Shown piece by piece: positions 2,383-19,144 of a stretch of 21,246 nucleotides of DNA (its first letter is position 1; each line of letters opens with the position of its first letter). The notes beneath the pieces were generated by a model. The model saw only the letters and a list, made by a program, of their open reading frames with translations, did no database searches and was not told the origin of the DNA. This stretch comes from a virus. Its lineage: Duplodnaviria; Heunggongvirae; Uroviricota; Caudoviricetes. The position numbers were made by a program, and so were the translations under genes. The stretch covers positions 1 through 21,246 of the IMG/VR virus record IMGVR_UViG_2534681772_000016. One strand, given 5' to 3'.

Positions 2383-2878
2383 GGTTTTTAACAGCAACAT
2401 GCTTAACTTTCTCAACACGTTTACGCATTTTGAAAGCATTTTGCATTGGCTGGTACAAAACAAATAACGACGCTTTCAGGATGTCGTCAATTTCGTTTCT
2501 ACAGGTTGCCAGTGAAGGTTTTCTCCATCCCTCGCCACCACGTCCACACATCTTGCGTGGCTTTGCAGTCGCGTGATAGTAGGATGCAATTGCTCGCTTA
2601 GATGAACCATGAGCGTAGTAGCTGAGGAGGATGCCAAAGGCTTTCTTGTCAATGCACATGACGGAATCGACGACCTGAGAAATCAACATTCCATCATCAT
2701 CATTGCACATTGGCCTTGTCATAACTCTTCCCGGCTCTACGCTCTCCATGAACTTCGCTATTACGCTGCTCATGCGCTTTTCCAGACGACCTGAATAAAC
2801 CCATGCGCCCCACAGTTCAAGCCAGCCATTCAGCCACTCATGCTGCTCTTTGGTGAGGTTTAGTTCTCTTATTCCCAT
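2360..2878 (-). CDS. Q: Late-gene antiterminator Q (non-lambda Q family, similar to phage 21/82 and QuuD types)
   Basis: The 172-aa product contains ..[37 protein letters not shown].. motifs recalled from Q-family antiterminators. It sits between the nin region and the late promoter and lysis genes. Confidence 0.75.
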
Positions 2879-3539
2879 GCGCCTTCTCCCTGTACCTGAA
2901 TCAATGTGAGGTTTCCGCAGAACACTGCGCCGGTATCGATATACATCTGGTTGGCAAACTTGAGTGGTTTCACTGCTGGCGTATGACCAAAGATGAACAT
3001 GTCCGCGCCTTTGATTTCTTTCACGATCCCGTCTTGTGAGTTGCTGATTCGTTCGCGATTCCAGATTACCTGCTGATGATCAACTGGCTTTCCGAACTCG
3101 TATTCGTCACAAGGATAATCGGCGTGGCAGATGACATATTTTTTCCTTTACTCACCAGTTCGATTATTAACGGAAGTTCATCTGCTTTATGGGCAAGAGC
3201 TTTAGCCAGAATTTCTTTGTCGTAATCGAGATTAAAGAACCAGCCACCGCCATTAAGCAGCCAGTGATTAACGTTTCCACGCTCTGATAAGCCATCAATC
3301 ATCATTTGCTCATGGTTTCCACGTACAGCTCTGAACCAGGGGAATGTGATTAATTCCATACATTCGACGTTCTCTGTACCGCGATCAACCAAATCGCCAA
3401 CCGAGATAAGCAGGTCTTTTTTGGTGTCGAATCCTATCGCCTCCAGTTTTTTCATCAGGTTCGTGTAGCATCCGTGCAGATCGCCAACTACCCAAATATT
3501 TCGGTATTTGCTGCCATCAATTCTTTCGTAATAGCGCAT
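2869..3539 (-). pseudogene. ninI: NinI-like Ser/Thr protein phosphatase (calcineurin-like metallophosphatase), frameshifted
   Basis: The N-terminal frame [28 protein letters not shown]...[19 protein letters not shown] matches lambda NinI. The C-terminal part [11 protein letters not shown]...[33 protein letters not shown] is in another frame. The break is at a T6 run (plus strand 3137-3142). Confidence 0.8.
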
Positions 3540-3723
3540 CTCTTTCACTCCATCCGCGATGAACCATAAGAACGTCGTTGACGATGGCGTGCATTTTCCC
3601 GTCTTTATCATCAACGTATTTTCTGACCGTGCCGCGACTACATTTCAGTCTGCGTGCTACTTCTGTCTGGTTTCCGTATGCTTCAACGAGCATGTCTGGA
3701 ATGGTTTTTACTGAGAACGTCAT
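3517..3723 (-). CDS. ninH: NinH
   Basis: The 68-aa product [39 protein letters not shown]... matches lambda NinH as recalled. Confidence 0.9.
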
Positions 3724-4331
3724 GCGGCCTCACTTCTGCTATTTCGCAGGTCTTTGAGTTTCTGCTGATACTCCGCCTTGATCGCCTTGCACTCTTCGAC
3801 AGTCCAGCGATGGCGGTTATGGTTTGATTCGATTTCGTCTACTGCTTCCTGCCCGATGCGATTAATCAGTTCGACGCGATACGGAACGAGATTTCCGCTT
3901 TTGTGCTGGTTGCACACCACGCATTGCTTGTGAATATTGCGTTCATCAAATCGGAGTTGAGGTGCCGCAGCAGTTGTCCGGTAATGTCCGGCATCCCACT
4001 GAGCAGACGTGAGCGTTCCGCACGAGATACATGGTAAGTCGCGGTCTCTTTCTCTGATGAAGGCGTTTACGGCTTGTTGGGCTTGTTTAATCCAGTAACT
4101 GCGGGGCTTTAAGGCGAGTTTTCGAATCTTAAGTTTATCTTTCTGTTTCTGCTCCTCTCGTCGTCGTTTCTTCTCTGCTGCCTTTTCCGCTTTTTCGCGT
4201 TCTTTGCTTCGTCGTTCGAGTGCTATCTTGGTTCCACACTCTGGAGAGCACCACCACTGATTGGCGAATGCAGGGTGAAACCATTCCCGACATTCATCGT
4301 TTTTACATCGTCTTCGCGCTGGTTTAGCCAT
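3720..4331 (-). CDS. ninG: NinG (Rap-family recombination-associated endonuclease)
   Basis: The 203-aa product [35 protein letters not shown]... has the Cys-rich pattern and length of lambda NinG. Confidence 0.9.
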
Positions 4332-4494
4332 CGTCTTCTTCCTCGTGCATCGAGCTATTCGGATCGCTCATCAGTTCTGCGCAGCAGTGCTCACACACGT
4401 GAACTTCCAGCACATGCAGCTTCTGACCGCAGTTAGCGCACGTTAAAGCTCGCTCGACGCTTTCTTGTTCGTAACTTCGATTTGGGTCAATCAC
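4324..4494 (-). CDS. ninF: NinF (GTG start)
   Basis: The 56-aa translation (V)[55 protein letters not shown] matches lambda NinF. It is shorter than the 60-aa cutoff of the ORF track. Confidence 0.8.
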
Positions 4495-4673
4495 CTTGTT
4501 TTCCTCGCACGTTCTCTAAGCCACCGGATATCCCACAGGTGAGCCGTGTAGTTGAAGGTTTTTACGTCAGATTCTTTTGGGATTGGCTTGCGTTTATTTC
4601 TGGAGCGTTTCGTTGGAAGGTATTTGCAGTTTTCACAGATGATGTCGGTGATACTTCGTCGCTGTCGTCTCAT
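4491..4673 (-). CDS. ninE: NinE
   Basis: The internal Met start gives [52 protein letters not shown]..., which matches lambda NinE (60 aa). Confidence 0.85.
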
Positions 4674-5200
4674 GCCGCCCTCCTGACGCGCTGCCCGATT
4701 GCCATCAATGCCGCTTTGGATACAGTAGTAAACATCCGTCGAGGACTGATGAACGGTCGCCAAATCAGCAGCATGGAGCCTTTGCTGTTTCCCTTCTTCT
4801 CCAGCCCTGTCGATGGTTCGATAAAATTAATCCGTCCATCAGTGATAATGCGAACTTCGTCGACACTCTCCAGAGCCTTGCTGAACCATCCGACTGACAT
4901 ATCCTCTGGCACAAGCATCACTACCGTCTGTCGCTGTTGTATACACTGCTCAGCGGCTTTTTCCACCCACGGCCTGATATTGCTGTACGGTGGGTTATTC
5001 CAGATTGCACCGTGGCTTACCCACTCAGAATTGAGCGCGTCGTCGGCCTCAGTTAGCCAGTGAGCACACAGAGCATTTTTGTCGCTCGCTGCCGAATCCA
5101 GCCAGAATCCAAACTCAATATCCAGTGCATCAAAAAGCCAAAGCGGCGTTTGCCAGCAGTCTCTAACTTCTTTTGGTGTTTCTGATTTATGCTTAATCAT
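4670..5200 (-). CDS. Phage Dam-like DNA N6-adenine methyltransferase
   Basis: The product contains [17 protein letters not shown] and NPPYS (the D/N-PP-Y catalytic motif). Its ATG overlaps the ninB stop (ATGA). It occupies the lambda ninC/ninD position. Confidence 0.7.
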
Positions 5201-6147: not shown

Positions 6148-6915
6148 TTAATACTCCGTCACGTTTTCCTGTCGCCACGCCTCGTCATATTCCGACTTCG
6201 GCATATTGGCGATGTAGCTATATGGCGATCCTGATTCAAGTTGCAGGAACTGGTGCGATTGCTCGTCAAGGAACAACGGGACACCACCTTCCCAACCTTC
6301 GCCGTTACGTTGTTTTTCAAGCATCAAAACAGATGCCGGAGATGCCAGTAGCTGTTCGTCCTTCTCTGACATCTTTTCACCACTCTGAACTCTCTGTAAC
6401 GCTCTCTCGCGAGCCTTGTTACGCCAGATGATGAAAAGATTGTCTGTCAGGTCTGTTATCGCTCCAGAGCCTTTTACGTCCATTTTCCCGGTTGGTTTTT
6501 CTTCGCTGTCTCCTTTTCGCGAGTGAGTAACGAGAATGACGTGGGAGTTTGTTTTGTTTTTGAAGTCGCAAATCGAGTCAACAAACGCCTTCTGCCCGTT
6601 ATAGTCATCGTCGCCTATGCCACATTTCATCAGGCTGTCGATGATGAATAACTGGATCCCGTATCGGCGGCGAGCGTAGTCGAATATTTCGATCAGCCTG
6701 TCGGCTTTCGCCGTTCCGGTCAGACCAAACACCCAAAGTCTCTCGTCATAAAATTTAAATGCAGAGTCAATTTCCAGCACTGGCGGCATCTTGCAGCACG
6801 TCGCCTGACGGGTAAGTCGCTTAAGGAGAATGCCTGGCTTCAGCTCAAGTGACGCGATGCAGGTCTTCACACCCTGACGCATTGCCTCAAGTGCCATATG
6901 CCCGACAACCTCGGT
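6148..6915 (-). CDS. Replicative primase-helicase, C-extein: RecA-like helicase core of the T7 gp4/DnaB type
   Basis: After the intein terminal HN the product reads TEVVGHMALEAMRQ... It has a Walker B-like IQLFIIDSLMK and the motifs HVILVTHSRK and GSGAITDLTDNLFIIWR. Confidence 0.7.
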   Translation of the reverse strand, partial: TEVVGHMALEAMRQGVKTCIASLELKPGILLKRLTRQATCCKMPPVLEIDSAFKFYDERLWVFGLTGTAKADRLIEIFDYARRRYGIQLFIIDSLMKCGIGDDDYNGQKAFVDSICDFKNKTNSHVILVTHSRKGDSEEKPTGKMDVKGSGAITDLTDNLFIIWRNKARERALQRVQSGEKMSEKDEQLLASPASVLMLEKQRNGEGWEGGVPLFLDEQSHQFLQLESGSPYSYIANMPKSEYDEAWRQENVTEY

Positions 6916-7937
6916 GTTATGCGTTGCCACATATCCTCTGGTTACATACAGGTGGCGAGGGTGATCGACCATGATACACAAGCATTCTGCATTGCCGATT
7001 TTTTCAACATTCCTGACGAATACCCCACACCCCTCGAATCGATGCGCAGTTAATCTGCCATTGAGTCGTGGTGAACGGATGGCCTCCCTGATTTCCCTTG
7101 TCAGTCGTATCCTTGCCTCATATGAATCCATCCCATGCCGCTTATCGCCCTTGTATGTGTATGTCACGCCAGTTTTAACTCGCGTCCGGCATGAACCGCC
7201 GAGTGAGTTAACCAGTTGAACAACCCCATTACGCAGTTCTTCACTTGCTGAGGAAAAACAAGCGTTCCATCCTTCTCGACATAACCATCCGTTTCAAGCA
7301 GACCACACAGCATTCCTATACGCGTTGATTTGTTTGCGGAAAAAAACACACGAGGGATGAATTTGTTTTTTGCTGTGCACCCCATTAGTCCATAAACTCG
7401 CAGGGTCTCCATGAGTGGATTTACCTGACCACGCGCCGTTGATATCAGCCAGTCCTTACCATCTCCAGAGAAGTTGTAATCAGGCAGTTCAGCCTTCATA
7501 CGCTCGATCATGTATGGCTCGACGTTTGAAAACTTCACGCTCCCATTGCTAAGACTACCATCCCCGAGAAGGGAGCCGATAACCCATGCTAATGGCTCTG
7601 AGTGGTCGCCAAAGTCACCAGTTATTTCGGGTATCCTGACGCCATTTTTGTGCCTCTTCGTTTCACTCAACCGTTTCAGCTCGAAGGTGTCTATCACGCG
7701 GCGCTTCTCGCCTTTCGTGAATCCACGACTAGTGACCTCCCATAGGTGATCGCCTGCGCAATCAACATAACGACCATCTTCAAATGTGACTCGGTAAACA
7801 TCTCTAACACCCTGCGGGAATATCCCGGTGACAGTTGACGGATTGCCGTCTACTGATGCCACCTGATCGCCAATTTTTACATCCCCGTGAGTAGTCCATT
7901 CACCATTAGCGAGCAGAATTGGTTCATCAAGTGGACA
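6916..7937 (-). other. Intein (Hint domain with embedded LAGLIDADG homing-endonuclease motifs) inserted in the helicase P-loop; reading frame broken at an A5/T5 run (plus strand 7254-7258)
   Basis: N-terminal block CPLDEPILLANGEW..IGDQVASVDG..VYRVTFEDGRYVDCAGDHLWEV. Two LAGLIDADG motifs: LAWVIGSLLGDGSL and IGMLCGLLETDGYV. C-terminal block, in the other frame, CLCIMVDHPRHLYVTRGYVATHN followed by T. The extein-only product restores GHGK(A)T. Confidence 0.7.
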
Positions 7938-9053
7938 GGCTTTTCCGTGACCGTTCACACCATTGACCAGCGTCAACTCTGCCTCACGGAACTGGAATTT
8001 ATCTGCCAGAGATTCCCACGGTGGATTAAACAGATACTGCTGCTTGCCGTAGAAAGCGTTGATAGTGTCCTGGTAAAACTCTCGCGCACTGTAGAGTTCT
8101 TCAGGATCGAAGTAGGATGCCGTGCCGATGTACTGCCAGATTTCATCCTCGGTAACACCGTTCATCAGGCATTCGTTGATGTCTTTGTACGGCAGAGTAA
8201 CAAGACGGCAACGATGTTCACCGAGTCGGCTTGCGATTTCCCTTGCGGCTTCACGACCAACATCATCAACGTCCATCGAGATGAATATTTCCTCAAACCT
8301 GTCGAGGTTGTGATACTCAAACTCAATCCACTGTTGCTTAGCGCCTTTCCCGCCACCAAACGGCACGGATAACGCCGAGATGCCGTATTGCGCATAGCTC
8401 ATACAATCAATTTCGCCTTCGCAAAGTACAACCGCCCTCACGCCAGCGTCCAGAGCCTGCCATCCGAACAGACAAGGTTCGCAATCACCTTCTGCCATAA
8501 TGACTTTCTTCCCGTCCGGGCGCTCAGTGCTGATTCGCTTGACCTGCAACAACTCACCATCGCGTTTGTACGGAAGCACCAGTGCATCAAGTTCTCGTTC
8601 TCCATTCCACACCTTGCCGCTGACAACCTCGTAGCGCTTTACGACTTCTGGCGATATGCCACGCGATTGCAGGTACTCAAGATGGGATTCTGTTCTGGTA
8701 ACGTAGCGGGCGATTTTCTTGCGGTCAGGTCTGGAGAATTTCTTCTCACGTTTGGCATCGAAATGGTGATCGTCATCCTTGATTCCGAGAAAGGCTTTCG
8801 CTTCCTGCATAGCCTGATGCAGGTTAATTCCACGACATGCCATCCACAAATCAAGCATGTCACCGCCGTCTCCCTCAGCGAAATCAGCCCATTTTTTCTT
8901 GCCGCTAAGGTTGACCTTAAGGCTGTTTCCCTTGTCACCGTTGACGTTACCGGCAACCCACTCATGCCCCTCTTTCTTGCCGTTTGGCAACAGGTGCGGA
9001 GCCACCCTGTCAACCTGCGCCCAAAGCAGGTCGCTAAGTTCACTTGGCGTCAT
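7938..9053 (-). CDS. Replicative primase-helicase, N-extein: toprim primase domain plus the start of the helicase up to the Walker A GVNGHGK
   Basis: The product contains the toprim signatures VVLCEGEIDCMSYAQYG and FISMDVDDVGREAA and ends in ..LTLVNGVNGHGKA before the intein. A GAGGGA RBS precedes the ATG at 9053. Confidence 0.75.
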
Positions 9054-14376: not shown

Positions 14377-14883
14377 ATGGCAAGCAGAGGCGTAAATAAG
14401 GTGATTATCCTTGGTCGGGTAGGACAAGACCCGGAAGTTCGATACTCACCATCAGGAACAGCGTTCGCTAACCTGACAATAGCCACGTCAGAACAATGGC
14501 GAGATAAAAATACTGGCGAGCAAAAGGAATTGACTGAATGGCATCGTGTTGCTGTATCCGGGAAACTGGCTGAGGTCGTTGGGCGGTATGTGAAAAAAGG
14601 TGATCAGATTTATTTCGAGGGAATGCTGAGAACCAGAAAGTGGAAAGACCAGTCAGGGCAAGACCGTTACACAACCGAGGTTCATGTCGGAATTAATGGC
14701 GTGATGCAAATGCTTGGCGGCATTGGCGACAGCAAACAACAAGCAGCCAGCAGGCAATCACAGAAGCCACAGCAGCAATCATCACCAGCACAACACAACG
14801 AACCTCCGATGGATTTTGACGACGATATACCCTTTGCACCAGTAACTCTCCCCTTCCCTCGTCACGCTATTCACGCAATTTAA
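14377..14883 (+). CDS. ssb: Single-stranded DNA-binding protein with a 15-aa extension beyond the DDDIPF tip
   Basis: OB-fold N-terminus [44 protein letters not shown]...; Gln/Pro-rich linker; ..[11 protein letters not shown] followed by [15 protein letters not shown]. Confidence 0.9.
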
Positions 14884-14896
14884 TCAGGAGAAAAAC

Positions 14897-15193
14897 ATGC
14901 CAGCGCCTTTGTATGGTGCGGATGACGCGCGCCGCTGTTCCGGCAATTCCGTATCGGAGGTGCTGGATAAATTCAGAAAAAACTACGATCGGATAATGTC
15001 GCTACCGCAGGAAACGAAAGAGGAAAAGGAATTTCGCCACTGTATATGGCTTGCAGAGAAAGAAGAGCGCGAGCGAATTTACCAGACATCAATCCGACCA
15101 TTCCGCAAAGCCACATATACCCACTTCTCTGAATATATCGACCCGCGCCTGCGTAATTACCGCTCACGCTATGGCGCTATCAGTAATGACTGA
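14897..15193 (+). CDS. Hypothetical protein (98 aa)
   Basis: The ORF MPAPLYGADDARRCSGNSVSEVLDKFRKNYDRIMSLPQETKEEKEF... has a GGAG RBS and lies in the accessory region after ssb. Confidence 0.5.
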   Translation: MPAPLYGADDARRCSGNSVSEVLDKFRKNYDRIMSLPQETKEEKEFRHCIWLAEKEERERIYQTSIRPFRKATYTHFSEYIDPRLRNYRSRYGAISND

Positions 15194-15203
15194 GGAATTA
15201 ACA

Positions 15204-15494
15204 ATGAAAACAATGAAGCTAAACATCGACCTCGGAAAATACGTTATTACCGGAACCAAACACGACCTGATTCTTAGCGAAAGAGGAATTATCAAAGAAG
15301 GCGAGAATGCAGGGAAAGAAACACTAAGCCGTATCGGTTATTACAGCAAGTTTGAGCATCTGGTCAAAGAGTTATGCAACCGTGAAATCCTGTTATCTCA
15401 GGCGCAGACGCTACAGGATATTCAGCAGCATATCGAGACTTTAGGTGTATCACTTAGCATGGCTATTGACCAGTTCGTGGAGAGTAAATCATGA
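15204..15494 (+). CDS. Hypothetical protein (96 aa)
   Basis: The [44 protein letters not shown]... has GAGG 8 nt upstream of the ATG. Confidence 0.5.
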
Positions 15495-15655
15495 GAGGAC
15501 TTGCATACAATCCCGGCATTCTTCCGGCAGAAATGATTATTCGCCAACGCGTAAAGCCAATGCCATCGAGAGAAGAATTGCTTAAGAGAAATTCTTTTCC
15601 ATCAGTGAATCAAAACAAATATCTGAATGCGATGTTGCGGAGTGGGAAGAAATGA
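15491..15655 (+). CDS. Hypothetical small protein (54 aa)
   Basis: The [57 protein letters not shown] overlaps both neighbouring genes by ATGA. Confidence 0.35.
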
Positions 15656-16026
15656 AACAAATGACACTAATTGAGATGGATGGATTTCTGAAAGGTAAAT
15701 GCATCCCACGAGATTTAAAGGTTAACGAAACAAACGCTGAATATCTTGTCCGTAAGTTCGGTGAACTTGAATCAAAACTCAACGAGCAGCGTGAATATTA
15801 CGAAGGTGTTATCTCTGATGGGAGTAAGCGTATAGCAGAGTTACAAAGTGGTTCTCAGGTACAAAAGTTAGTTGAAGCAATCATTGTTGCGATAGAAAAC
15901 GAACAGGAACGTCTTTTTGATGAAGATTACCTAATGGATTCGAAAGAATGCATTGACGTAATTCGTGAAGAAGTAAAGCGATGGAATGATTCCCGCGCCG
16001 CTGGCATTCGCATCAAAGGAGAGTGA
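15652..16026 (+). CDS. Hypothetical protein (124 aa)
   Basis: The [49 protein letters not shown]... is translationally coupled within the operon. Confidence 0.5.
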
Positions 16027-16027
16027 G

Positions 16028-16213
16028 ATGAAGCGAGAAATTATCAATTTCATCAATCCAGGTAACTGCTGCCCTGGTCATGACAAATACCCATGTGACA
16101 AATACAAAAATAGGCGTTCAGTTCGCCAACGCGCACTCGGTATTAAAAAAGAGCATCGACATGTGAGAAGAACCGTCCGTCAGGAATTGCTATTAAATAT
16201 TGGTGAGGACTAA
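16028..16213 (+). CDS. Hypothetical Cys-rich small basic protein (61 aa)
   Basis: The ORF MKREIINFINPGNCCPGHDKYPCDKYKNRRSVRQRALGIKKEHRHVRRTV... carries the cluster CCPGH..C. Confidence 0.4.
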   Translation: MKREIINFINPGNCCPGHDKYPCDKYKNRRSVRQRALGIKKEHRHVRRTVRQELLLNIGED

Positions 16214-16216
16214 CAC

Positions 16217-17028
16217 ATGACCACTATTACCAGAGAACAAGCTCTGAAAATTATTGAGGCAGCCGATGAGGTTATTAGTGCGCTTGCCGGAACTAACGAG
16301 GATGTTCACCCTGGTAGCGATAACATGCTACGTCTGTGGGATGACCTGAATGACCGTTACGCGCCGCCGGAAGTTGTGCGCGAACTGGCGCGGATTGCAC
16401 TGGCATCGCTGGAAGCAGAGCCGGTGGCTTATATTTTCAAACATCCGGCCGGGAAATTATTCTGGGCTTTAACGGATGAAAGCAATAAAGAGCAAGCGGA
16501 CGTTATTCCTGTTTATGCTGCCGCGCCTGCGTCGGTTGTGCCGGATAATGCATCAGAGCCTCTTGCTTATGCTTACAAAGAGCTTACGCCTGAGATTATG
16601 CGCAACCATTTAGCTGTATTCGAGCGATATGGAATAGCCCCAAACGATAGCTCTACCACAATTCAGGCACTGCGAATCGCGCTGGATGGCATAGAGCGGA
16701 GCGACGCCATGCTTCATGGTGCCGAAACTGTAAGCCAAACTTACAAGTTGCCTCCCCTGTCATCCAGCGAAGTAAACGACGCGGCATGGAAATTACACAA
16801 CATGCTGACTGAACACGGCCTGCTAAATGGGCGTCAGTTCAACAATCTGAAAGGTTGCTTCTATGAGGCATTAAAGGTCGCAATGCGCAACTATCCGGCA
16901 ACTCCGGATAGTTGGATAAGCTGTAGTGAGCGAATGCCGGATACCAAAACAGCCGTTCTTGTTGCCGTGGAGTTTGACAGGAAAGGTGACTGGCGAATGA
17001 AATGGGCGACTTACATCCCGGGGCATCC
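16217..17028 (+). pseudogene. DUF551-like phage protein, 5' portion, interrupted by IS629 after codon 270
   Basis: The ORF runs from the prophage into the IS at 17029. Its C-terminal region ..WISCSERMPDTKTAVLVAVEFDRKGDWRMKWATYIPGHP resembles the DUF551 pattern as recalled. The continuation is found in frame after the IS. Confidence 0.7.
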
Positions 17029-17082
17029 TGAACCGCCCCGGGAATCCTGGAGACTAAACTCCCTGAGAAAGAGGTAAACAGG

Positions 17083-17409
17083 ATGACTAAAAATACTCGT
17101 TTTTCCCCCGAAGTCCGTCAGAGGGCGATTCGTATGGTTCTGGAAAGTCAGGGCGAATATGACTCACAGTGGGCGGCAATTTGTTCCATTGCCCCAAAGA
17201 TTGACTGTACACCGGAGACTCTGCGTGTCTGGGTACGCCAGCATGAGCGGGATACCGGAGGCGGTGATGGCGGGCTCACCACCGCTGAACGTCAGCGTCT
17301 GAAAGAGCTGGAACGTGAAAATCGTGAACTGCGCCGCAGTAACGATATCCTTCGCCAGGCTTCCGCTTATTTTGCGAAGGCGGAGTTCGACCGCCTCTGG
17401 AAAAAGTGA
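17083..17409 (+). CDS. IS3-family transposase OrfA (HTH)
   Basis: The 108-aa product [40 protein letters not shown]... has a leucine-zipper-like C-terminus and matches IS629/IS1203-type OrfA as recalled. Confidence 0.9.
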
Positions 17410-18296
17410 TGCCACTGCTGGATAAGCTGCGTAAGCTGTACGGGGTCGGACCGGTATGCAGTGAACTACATATTGCCCCGTCAACGTATTACCACTGTCA
17501 GCAACAGCGACATCATCCTGATAAACGCAGTGCCCGTGCGCAGCGCGATGACTGGCTGAAGAAAGAGATACTGCGCGTATACGATGGGAATCATCAGGTA
17601 TACGGTGTGCGTAAAGTCTGGCGTCAGTTGTTACGGGAAGGAATCAGGGTAGCCAGATGTACAGTGGCGCGCCTCATGGCGGTTATGGGACTTGCCGGTG
17701 TTCTCCGGGGTAAAAAGGTCCGCACTACCGTCAGCCGGAAAGCCGTTGCCGCAGGCGACCGCGTAAACCGTCAGTTTGTGGCAGAACGTCCTGACCAGTT
17801 GTGGGTGGCTGATTTTACTTACGTCAGCACATGGCAGGGGGTCGTCTATGTGGCGTTCATCATTGATGTGTTTGCCGGATACATCGTGGGGTGGCGGGTC
17901 TCATCGTCTATGGAAACGACATTCGTGCTGGATGCTCTGGAGCAGGCGTTATGGGCCCGTCGACCGTCCGGCACAGTCCATCACAGTGATAAAGGTTCTC
18001 AGTATGTATCGCTGGCCTACACACAGCGGCTTAAGGAAGCCGGATTACTGGCATCAACAGGAAGTACTGGTGACTCGTATGACAACGCGATGGCGGAGAG
18101 CATCAATGGCCTTTACAAAGCGGAGGTAATACACCGTAAGAGCTGGAAAAACCGGACAGAAGTGGAGCTGGCCACACTCACGTGGGTGGACTGGTATAAC
18201 AATCGACGATTGCTGGGAAGGCTGGGCCATACTCCTCCGGCAGAAGCAGAAAAAGCTTATTATGCTTCCATCGGAAACGATGATCTGGCAGCCTGA
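17406..18296 (+). CDS. IS3-family transposase OrfB (DDE domain), normally made as an OrfAB fusion by -1 frameshifting
   Basis: The 296-aa product has ..WVADFTYV.. and ..HHSDKGSQY.. and ..[15 protein letters not shown].. (the DDE triad context). It overlaps orfA in the -1 frame at an A-rich site. Confidence 0.9.
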
Positions 18297-18341
18297 GTTC
18301 ACAGATAAAACACTCTCCAGGAAACCCGGGGCGGTTCATCC

Positions 18342-18423
18342 TGACGCTAATGATGGGTGGATAATTCCTGGTGCGTCGTGGAAACCGTCACACTGGATGC
18401 CGCTACCAGAGCCTCCACTTTGA
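18342..18423 (+). pseudogene. 3' remnant of the IS-interrupted DUF551-like gene
   Basis: Removing the IS and one copy of tcc gives a continuous ORF ending ..GHPDANDGWIIPGASWKPSHWMPLPEPPL. Confidence 0.6.
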
Positions 18424-18519
18424 AAGCGAAGCTTATACATATCTTTTACATCAGCAATCTATTGTTAATCTCCAATCAATGTTACGTTGTCATCTCACTC
18501 ATGCTTTGGAGGTAGTGAT

Positions 18520-18699
18520 ATGTCTTGTCCAAAATGCGGTTCTGGAAATATTGCAAAAGAAAAAACAATGCGTGGATGGTCTGGTGATTATGTGTGCTGC
18601 GATTGCGGATACAACGACTCTAAAGACGCATTTGGAGAGCGTGGTAAAAACGAGTTTGTTAAAATTAATAAAGAACGCGAAGGCAACGAAAAAAGCTAA
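18520..18699 (+). CDS. Hypothetical zinc-ribbon small protein (59 aa)
   Basis: The ORF MSCPKCGSGNIAKEKTMRGWSGDYVCCDCGYNDSKDAFGERGKNEF... has two CxxC pairs. GGAGG lies 8 nt upstream of the ATG. Confidence 0.5.
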   Translation: MSCPKCGSGNIAKEKTMRGWSGDYVCCDCGYNDSKDAFGERGKNEFVKINKEREGNEKS

Positions 18700-18764
18700 T
18701 TTATTTATTCATATATGAAAACAATGTAACCAATATTCGATTTGAAGAACTGAAAGAACACCAA

Positions 18765-18787
18765 GCCGCCTGATGGCGGTTTTTTAT
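18765..18787 (+). terminator. Intrinsic terminator
   Basis: The hairpin gccgcc-tgat-ggcggt is followed by ttttttatt. Confidence 0.55.
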
Positions 18788-18799
18788 TGGAGACAAGAA

Positions 18800-19144
18800 A
18801 TGTCAGATTTGGCTATGAAGGTTTTGAAATGGCAATCGACTGGCGATGTTGGCATCAGTAGCGCAACTCTTGCCTCAATCGCATGTGGACTGAAAAAGAA
18901 TATCTATGGTCATCACTTCGGCGCTCCACATGACGCAGCCGATTTCCGGCGATGCGTTGCACTTGTTGAGCAGATTCCAGAAATCAGAGATTCATTCGAC
19001 AAGGTTGCAAAGCGCGTTCCGGCATTCAAAGGCATCCTCAACGAATGGGATTCTCTCGTTGCTCTGTTGAAGTCTGAAATGAAGATACACGGAAACAAAG
19101 CACCAGAGACTTACAGAAGAATCAGCGAGCTACGCAAGGACTAA
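18800..19144 (+). CDS. Hypothetical protein (114 aa)
   Basis: The ORF MSDLAMKVLKWQSTGDVGISSATLASIACGLKKNIYGHHFGAPHDAADFRR... has a GGAGA RBS. The upstream ATG at 18773 lies inside the terminator and was not used. Confidence 0.5.
   Translation: MSDLAMKVLKWQSTGDVGISSATLASIACGLKKNIYGHHFGAPHDAADFRRCVALVEQIPEIRDSFDKVAKRVPAFKGILNEWDSLVALLKSEMKIHGNKAPETYRRISELRKD

Follow-up and report, generated by a model that had tools for sequence, protein, structure and literature searches.

The question raised by this locus is whether a prophage gene has been split by an insertion sequence (IS) and, if so, what the gene looked like before, how the IS arrived and what the event changed. The locus lies at positions 16217-18423 of the IMG/VR virus record IMGVR_UViG_2534681772_000016, a stretch of 21,246 nt that was analysed as a whole and is called the window here. 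A first-pass annotation, made from the letters of the window, had described an IS629 copy in a DUF551-like gene, a 3-bp direct repeat at its ends and an open reading frame (ORF) that could be restored by taking the IS out. Our analysis leads to much the same answer: an IS of the IS629/IS1203 group almost certainly transposed into codon 271 of a 297-codon EaA-like/DUF551 accessory gene of an Escherichia coli prophage. Nothing was found that contradicts the insertion itself.

Reconstruction of the interrupted gene

The 5' part of the DUF551-domain gene is located at 16217-17028 (+ strand) and includes codons 1-270 and the first two bases of Pro271. The orphaned 3' end follows at 18342-18423 (+ strand), where the gene resumes with the third base of codon 271 and continues through codons 272-297 to the stop codon, encoding DANDGWIIPGASWKPSHWMPLPEPPL. 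Between the two parts stands the IS (17029-18338) with its target-site duplication, TCC, which is present at 17026-17028 and at 18339-18341. When the IS and one TCC (17029-18341) are deleted, 16217-17028 is joined in frame to 18342-18423, ...ATYIPGHP being followed by DANDGWIIPGASWKPSHWMPLPEPPL and the stop codon as originally proposed. The rebuilt ORF has 894 nt, encodes 297 aa and ends in ...ATYIPGHPDANDGWIIPGASWKPSHWMPLPEPPL.

The relationship to DUF551 is also clear. The rebuilt protein matches Pfam DUF551 (PF04448) over model positions 1-67 of 68 with 73.9 bits (E 1.9e-20), against a gathering cut-off of 22 bits, and thus contains the full domain, which starts at aa 232; in the interrupted protein only model positions 1-38 of 68 are matched (aa 232-270, 37.8 bits). 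The N-terminal part of about 230 aa is EaA-like and matches PHROGs phage families of unknown function only, and aa 1-234 share 60% identity with a stretch of phage JL22 annotated as an EaA protein and a hypothetical protein. No solved structure was found for the DUF551 protein by sequence search, and the protein did not match any of the PADLOC defence models.

In its present state the gene forms a fusion ORF at 16217-17077 (+ strand) of 286 aa, including 271 native and 15 IS-encoded residues. The split Pro271 codon (CC/T) is followed by the 15 IS-encoded codons and by a TAA at 17075-17077, 5 nt before the ATG of orfA, the first gene of the IS. The fusion described in the first-pass annotation is therefore real, but it reaches further than had been stated: 49 nt of the IS belong to the ORF, which thus extends past the 25-nt inverted repeat. 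On the other side, an ORF of 53 aa (18262-18423) begins within the IS and runs out in frame through the orphaned 3' end; a public gene call of 53 aa lies over this end and gives a weak DUF551 match.

The empty site and the distribution of the junction

When the rebuilt gene was compared by megablast with 5,426 complete E. coli genomes, one perfect, full-length and uninterrupted copy was obtained, in the enterotoxigenic E. coli (ETEC) strain TW10590 (NZ_CP035850.1). The allele of TW10590 is 100% identical to the rebuilt gene, forms one coding sequence (CDS) of 894 nt annotated as a DUF551 domain-containing protein (WP_126687923.1), and contains TCC only once at the place where the IS is inserted in the window. 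Positions 16217-17028 are 100% identical to 18001-18812 of the extracted TW10590 locus, as are positions 18342-18423 to their counterpart, and on the two sides of the IS the identity stays at 100% for 2603 and 2910 bp. The whole window and the TW10590 prophage are 99.9-100% identical. A clean transposition into a coding sequence, as had been suggested, is borne out by this identical empty site, which is the decisive piece of evidence.

None of the same complete genomes covered the junction when it was searched with 130 nt on each side, and only one contig on record (AIHG01000020.1, assembly GCA_000250335.2) encodes precisely the 286-aa fusion protein. The window evidently derives from this contig and begins about 2 bases into it. 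Because of this distribution, the insertion is taken to be recent and private to the GCA_000250335.2 strain.

The rebuilt protein was also aligned with four uninterrupted homologues, i.e., the identical one of TW10590, those of plasmid p47538_2 (97% identity) and phage Stx1_121427 (Stx1a), and a 120-aa DUF551 protein of O157:H7. None of these ends at or before the position corresponding to 17028; all four run on through the same ...DANDGWIIPGASWKPSHWMPLPEPP tail to ...HWMPLPEPP. Many of the closest uninterrupted homologues of the gene (96-98% identity) were located on E. coli plasmids of 90-120 kb and not in chromosomal prophages. In p47538_2 the gene adjoins ead/Ea22-like genes, and the plasmids carrying such homologues may be phage-plasmids.

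Structure and naming of the insertion sequence

The IS occupies 17029-18338 (+ strand) and is exactly 1310 bp long. It starts with TGAACC and finishes with GGTTCA, in agreement with the 5'-TG...CA-3' ends of this family, and its terminal inverted repeats of 25 nt, TGAACCGCCCCGGGAATCCTGGAGA on the left (17029-17053, + strand) and TCTCCAGGAAACCCGGGGCGGTTCA on the right (18314-18338, + strand), are complementary at 23/25 positions (92%). The TCC duplication also falls within the short range of the IS3 family (3-4 bp). A match of 3 bp between flanks is weak by itself, since it would arise by chance about once in 64 cases. The boundaries of the IS are nevertheless supported, because two further copies, one in TW10590 and one in O157:H7, share the same termini and the same 1310 bp, and each has its own 3-bp duplication (GGG and GCA, respectively).

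A stop codon is present before the orfA ATG in all three reading frames entering the left end of the IS. The gene orfA (17083-17409, + strand) encodes 108 aa corresponding to the helix-turn-helix N-terminal part of the transposase (Pfam HTH_Tnp_1, E 4e-12). The orfB frame (17406-18296, + strand) carries a DDE catalytic domain of the retroviral-integrase (rve) type, as in other IS3-family transposases (Pfam rve, E 3.1e-27; HTH_21, E 1.3e-17; also rve_3). The end of orfA (TGG AAA AAG TGA) overlaps the -1 frame of orfB at an A5G run (17401-17406), which is spanned by a predicted frameshift-stimulating RNA, the ALIL pseudoknot (Rfam RF01497; 17364-17480, + strand), matched over the full model length (1-117) with 116.2 bits (gathering score, 50). 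IS3-family elements produce their OrfAB transposase through programmed -1 frameshifting at an A-rich run upstream of an ALIL pseudoknot, and the overlapping orfA/orfB genes appear to follow this -1 arrangement. Translation of orfA with a -1 shift into orfB gives an OrfAB protein of 404 aa without internal stops, and the public gene call for the transposase on AIHG01000020.1 is likewise 404 aa long. An ALIL pseudoknot and a "programmed frameshift" were also marked in the TW10590 and O157 copies by the Prokaryotic Genome Annotation Pipeline (PGAP). The IS is complete, its coding capacity is intact, and it is apparently functional. In the region 16000-18800 no sigma-70 promoter was found by scanning, and the terminator-like matches were few and unremarkable.

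The identity of the IS to other copies was 99.6% for that of TW10590, with five clustered base differences and two amino-acid changes in OrfAB; 96.2% for that of phage BP-4795, called IS629 by its depositors; 95.9% for the Stx2a_499 copy labelled "IS3 family IS629"; and 95.3% for an O157:H7 copy named IS1203 by PGAP. Near-identical relatives (99.6-100%) occur in the ETEC strains TW10590 and TW11681. According to ISfinder practice, isoforms share at least about 90% identity in DNA and 95% in protein. With 1310 bp and 95-96% identity to labelled copies, the IS agrees, indirectly, with membership in the IS629/IS1203/IS3411 group. IS1203 and IS3411 have been treated as isoforms of IS629, with sub-types that differ by 4-5% (PMC3271280). 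Judging from its sequence, the element is an isoform of the IS629/IS1203 group, and the earlier designation "IS629", in line with its identity to the BP-4795 and O157:H7 copies, is acceptable as a group name.

A resemblance was noted between the target before insertion, GGGGCA-TCC-TGACGC, and the end-to-end junction of an IS circle, GGTTCA-NNN-TGAACC, in which 8/12 positions match (binomial P ~0.003), and an 8-mer, CATCCTGA, is common to both junctions in the window (17020-17036 and 18330-18346). The targets of two other IS copies match at 4/12 positions each, and the resemblance was judged to be probably due to chance.

Alternative explanations

The same pair of alleles could be produced in the opposite direction if the interrupted state were ancestral and the TW10590 allele had arisen by precise excision of the IS with one TCC, e.g., through an IS-excision enhancer (IEE). 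Excision of IS629 promoted by IEE is documented (10.1101/2023.06.07.543989; PMC9397093), and the window and TW10590 are so nearly identical that the direction of change is not readable from this pair alone. However, more distant lineages are uninterrupted too, i.e., the plasmids at 96-97% identity, the Stx1a phage and the short O157 homologue. Excision would also need an insertion followed by a scar-free loss, whereas insertion is a single event, and an ancestral junction is difficult to reconcile with its occurrence in 0/5,426 complete genomes and with a fusion protein known from one contig only. No IEE gene lies within the window, and we consider excision very improbable. An error of assembly, by which a multi-copy repeat was wrongly threaded into the contig, would seem conceivable, as AIHG01000020.1 is a draft whole-genome shotgun contig that starts within another IS629-like copy (1-303), so that a repeat did break the assembly elsewhere. 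Nevertheless, each junction coincides precisely with the end of an inverted repeat, and the 3-bp target, present once in TW10590, is cleanly duplicated around the IS, something that a chimeric join would not bring about. Moreover, the two IS copies of the contig are only 97.7% identical and hence distinguishable, so that each could be placed by the assembler. Hardly any weight is left for an artefact.

The remaining possibility, that the native stop lies no further than the insertion point and that the frame stays open beyond the IS by coincidence, can be set aside altogether. The 26 downstream codons extend the DUF551 coverage from model positions 1-38 to 1-67 of 68, they are present in every uninterrupted homologue aligned, and the 894 nt are annotated as one CDS in TW10590. 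Some caveats concern the name of the element and the assembly. The name of the IS is based on 95-96% identity to copies labelled IS629 or IS1203 by others and not on an ISfinder reference, and PGAP names even the 99.6% identical copy of TW10590 only "IS3 family transposase"; in addition, the assembly is a draft, with two single-base homopolymer differences elsewhere in the window.

Proposed event and its consequences

Elements of the IS3 family transpose by a copy-out-paste-in route through a circular intermediate, and the donor copy stays in place. By analogy with this established biology, the OrfAB transposase of an incoming IS629/IS1203-group copy would have been produced by programmed -1 frameshifting at the A-rich run, the IS would have moved in the copy-out-paste-in manner through a circular intermediate, and staggered cuts 3 bp apart in the target would have led to the TCC duplication. 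The protein would thereby lose 26 native residues from its C-terminus, among them HWMPLPEPP, the most conserved motif of DUF551, and gain 15 IS-encoded residues instead. Because the most conserved motif is within the lost residues, the DUF551 domain has probably been inactivated by the insertion. No phenotype can be predicted, because DUF551 has no established function. An insert of 1.3 kb would now also separate the early-left promoter from the Eag-like, unknown and excisionase-like genes that lie downstream.

The IS has the same orientation as the early-left operon, and the TAA of the fusion ORF, 5 nt ahead of the orfA ATG, stands directly after an AAGAGG, which probably serves orfA. It could be imagined from this geometry that the IS has come under the control of the prophage, with induction driving transcription of the transposase and termination-reinitiation its translation. 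We regard this as unlikely; if true, it would mean that bursts of IS629-type transposition are coupled to the SOS response.

The insertion is a routine event for a well-known and mostly prophage-located IS and is already known in kind. Its value is as a clean, fully documented IS629-type insertion with a matching empty site. It separates the GCA_000250335.2 lineage from its close relative TW10590 and could serve as a strain-typing marker. It also adds to the picture of a decaying prophage, in which IS copies are found together with frameshifts in lysis, phosphatase and primase-helicase genes.

Prophage context and other defects in the window

The interrupted gene is located in the early-left operon of a P22-like/lambdoid prophage, in the "ea" region between anti-RecBCD and xis. 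This context is based on how the 99.9% identical region of TW10590 is annotated and on gene calls and Pfam matches on AIHG01000020.1. The gene order begins with N-like, CIII, Kil, a Rad52-type recombinase, single-stranded DNA-binding protein (SSB), anti-RecBCD and several small unknowns, continues with the DUF551 gene, an Eag/Lar-like zinc-ribbon protein, an unknown and a TorI-type excisionase, and is followed by the chromosomal csc and dsd genes.

In TW10590 the 99.6% identical IS (14904-16213 of the TW10590 locus) is inserted in the opposite orientation, with a GGG/CCC duplication, within about codon 18 of the prophage ssb, and an SSB with an IS-encoded N-terminus is annotated there by PGAP. 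In the window the ssb gene (14377-14883) is intact and the corresponding site (14429-14436) is empty. The two sister prophages thus carry the IS in DUF551 and in ssb, respectively, and in each of them the site used in the other is unoccupied. All five base differences between these copies lie within 70 bp (IS positions 1139-1208), suggestive of a conversion patch. A local hop of one copy between ssb and DUF551 was considered and rejected, as the copies differ at these five clustered bases and in orientation and as IS3 elements leave the donor in place; two separate insertions are the simpler reading.

Positions 1-303 of the window represent the right end of a further IS629-like copy, which is oriented like the IS at 17029-18338 and is 97.7% identical to it. 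TW10590 has no IS at the matching place, which lies between a Gp49-family gene and the lysis genes. An Rz-type lysis gene (660-1117, - strand) is split into the overlapping ORFs 660-974 and 713-1117; the identical gene of TW10590 is marked as frameshifted by PGAP, so the defect is common to both sister prophages. In a Ser/Thr phosphatase gene (about 2869-3540, - strand), a run of T6 near 3138, compared with T7 in TW10590, disrupts the reading frame.

An intein in the primase-helicase gene

In the primase-helicase gene (6148-9053, - strand), an insert of 1025 nt was observed at 6916-7940 that is missing from the otherwise 99.9% identical TW10590. It follows the GHGK of the Walker A motif, and its first residue is Ala. 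When the intein blocks were assigned by eye, the insert was found to carry ...GDHLW... (Trp, block B), ...ECLCIMV... (Cys, block F) and ...ATHN/T (THN followed by Thr+1). It also holds two LAGLIDADG motifs (Pfam LAGLIDADG_3), and among its matches in PDB are PI-SceI and two intein chains of DnaB ("Replicative DNA helicase"), 6rix and 6bs8. A duplication or a gene remnant was rejected as the origin of the insert, for which the extra 1028 bp of the gene were compared, since no self-similarity was found at the protein or DNA level. We take inteins named ShP-Sfv to come from Shigella flexneri prophages. Primase inteins of this name have been listed, and class 3 inteins have been defined by a non-nucleophilic first residue, a WCT triplet (Trp, Cys and Thr in blocks B, F and G, respectively) and Thr or Ser at +1, with a usual location in the ATPase P-loop of a helicase-type protein (PMC2807308). 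The insert at 6916-7940 shows the features of this class and, as predicted from its motifs, is a class 3 intein with a LAGLIDADG homing endonuclease.

The intein is in frame, with 342 aa and 96.4% identity, in 79 complete E. coli genomes, e.g., within a CDS of 968 aa in Xuzhou21. Compared with Xuzhou21, the copy in the window is one T short in a run near 7259 (T5 vs. T6, - strand), and the resulting frameshift divides the primase-helicase gene into two ORFs, of 629 and 339 aa, with an ATGA overlap. This deletion could be a genuine mutation that inactivates the gene, or else an error in a homopolymer of the draft. The single-base difference near 3138 is a second one in a homopolymer and raises the suspicion of sequencing error; the differences near 3138 and 7259 may both be errors of draft sequencing. 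The frameshifted, putative class 3 intein was the most interesting thing seen in this analysis, more so than the IS insertion itself.

Comparison with known systems

DUF551 has been described as a portable domain of unknown function that occurs in YfdS and in the V2 variant of Ea22 (PMC10834534; PMC4776307). As in YfdS of prophage CPS-53 and Ea22 V2 of Stx phages, the DUF551 domain of the interrupted gene is C-terminal and ends in ...WMPLPEPP. A variable N-terminal module fused to DUF551 and a position in the non-essential early region of lambdoid prophages are also shared with these proteins. The N-terminal 230 aa, however, are EaA-like here and do not form the coiled coil of Ea22.

The IS resembles the IS629/IS1203/IS3411 elements in its 1310 bp, its TGAACC...GGTTCA ends, the orfA/orfB layout with a -1 frameshift, the ALIL pseudoknot, the rve domain, the 3-bp duplication and the location in a prophage. 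It differs from the named IS629 and IS1203 copies of Shiga toxin-producing E. coli by 4-5% in sequence. Duplications of 3-4 bp have been reported for IS629, and 62% of its copies in O157:H7 are located in prophages (PMC3271280). A close parallel is found in several O157:H7 genomes (e.g., ECP19-598, 3311-4866 of the extracted locus). There, IS1203 splits a DUF4222 gene directly downstream of a DUF551 gene; the orientation is the same, and a duplication of 3 bp is again present. In phage Stx1_121427 an IS629-type copy lies about 350 bp from the DUF551 gene. The target genes and positions in O157:H7 and the Stx phages are different from the one described here, and an insertion within the DUF551 domain was seen only in AIHG01000020.1. 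The exo-xis or "ea" region appears to have been hit repeatedly by elements of the IS629/IS1203 group.

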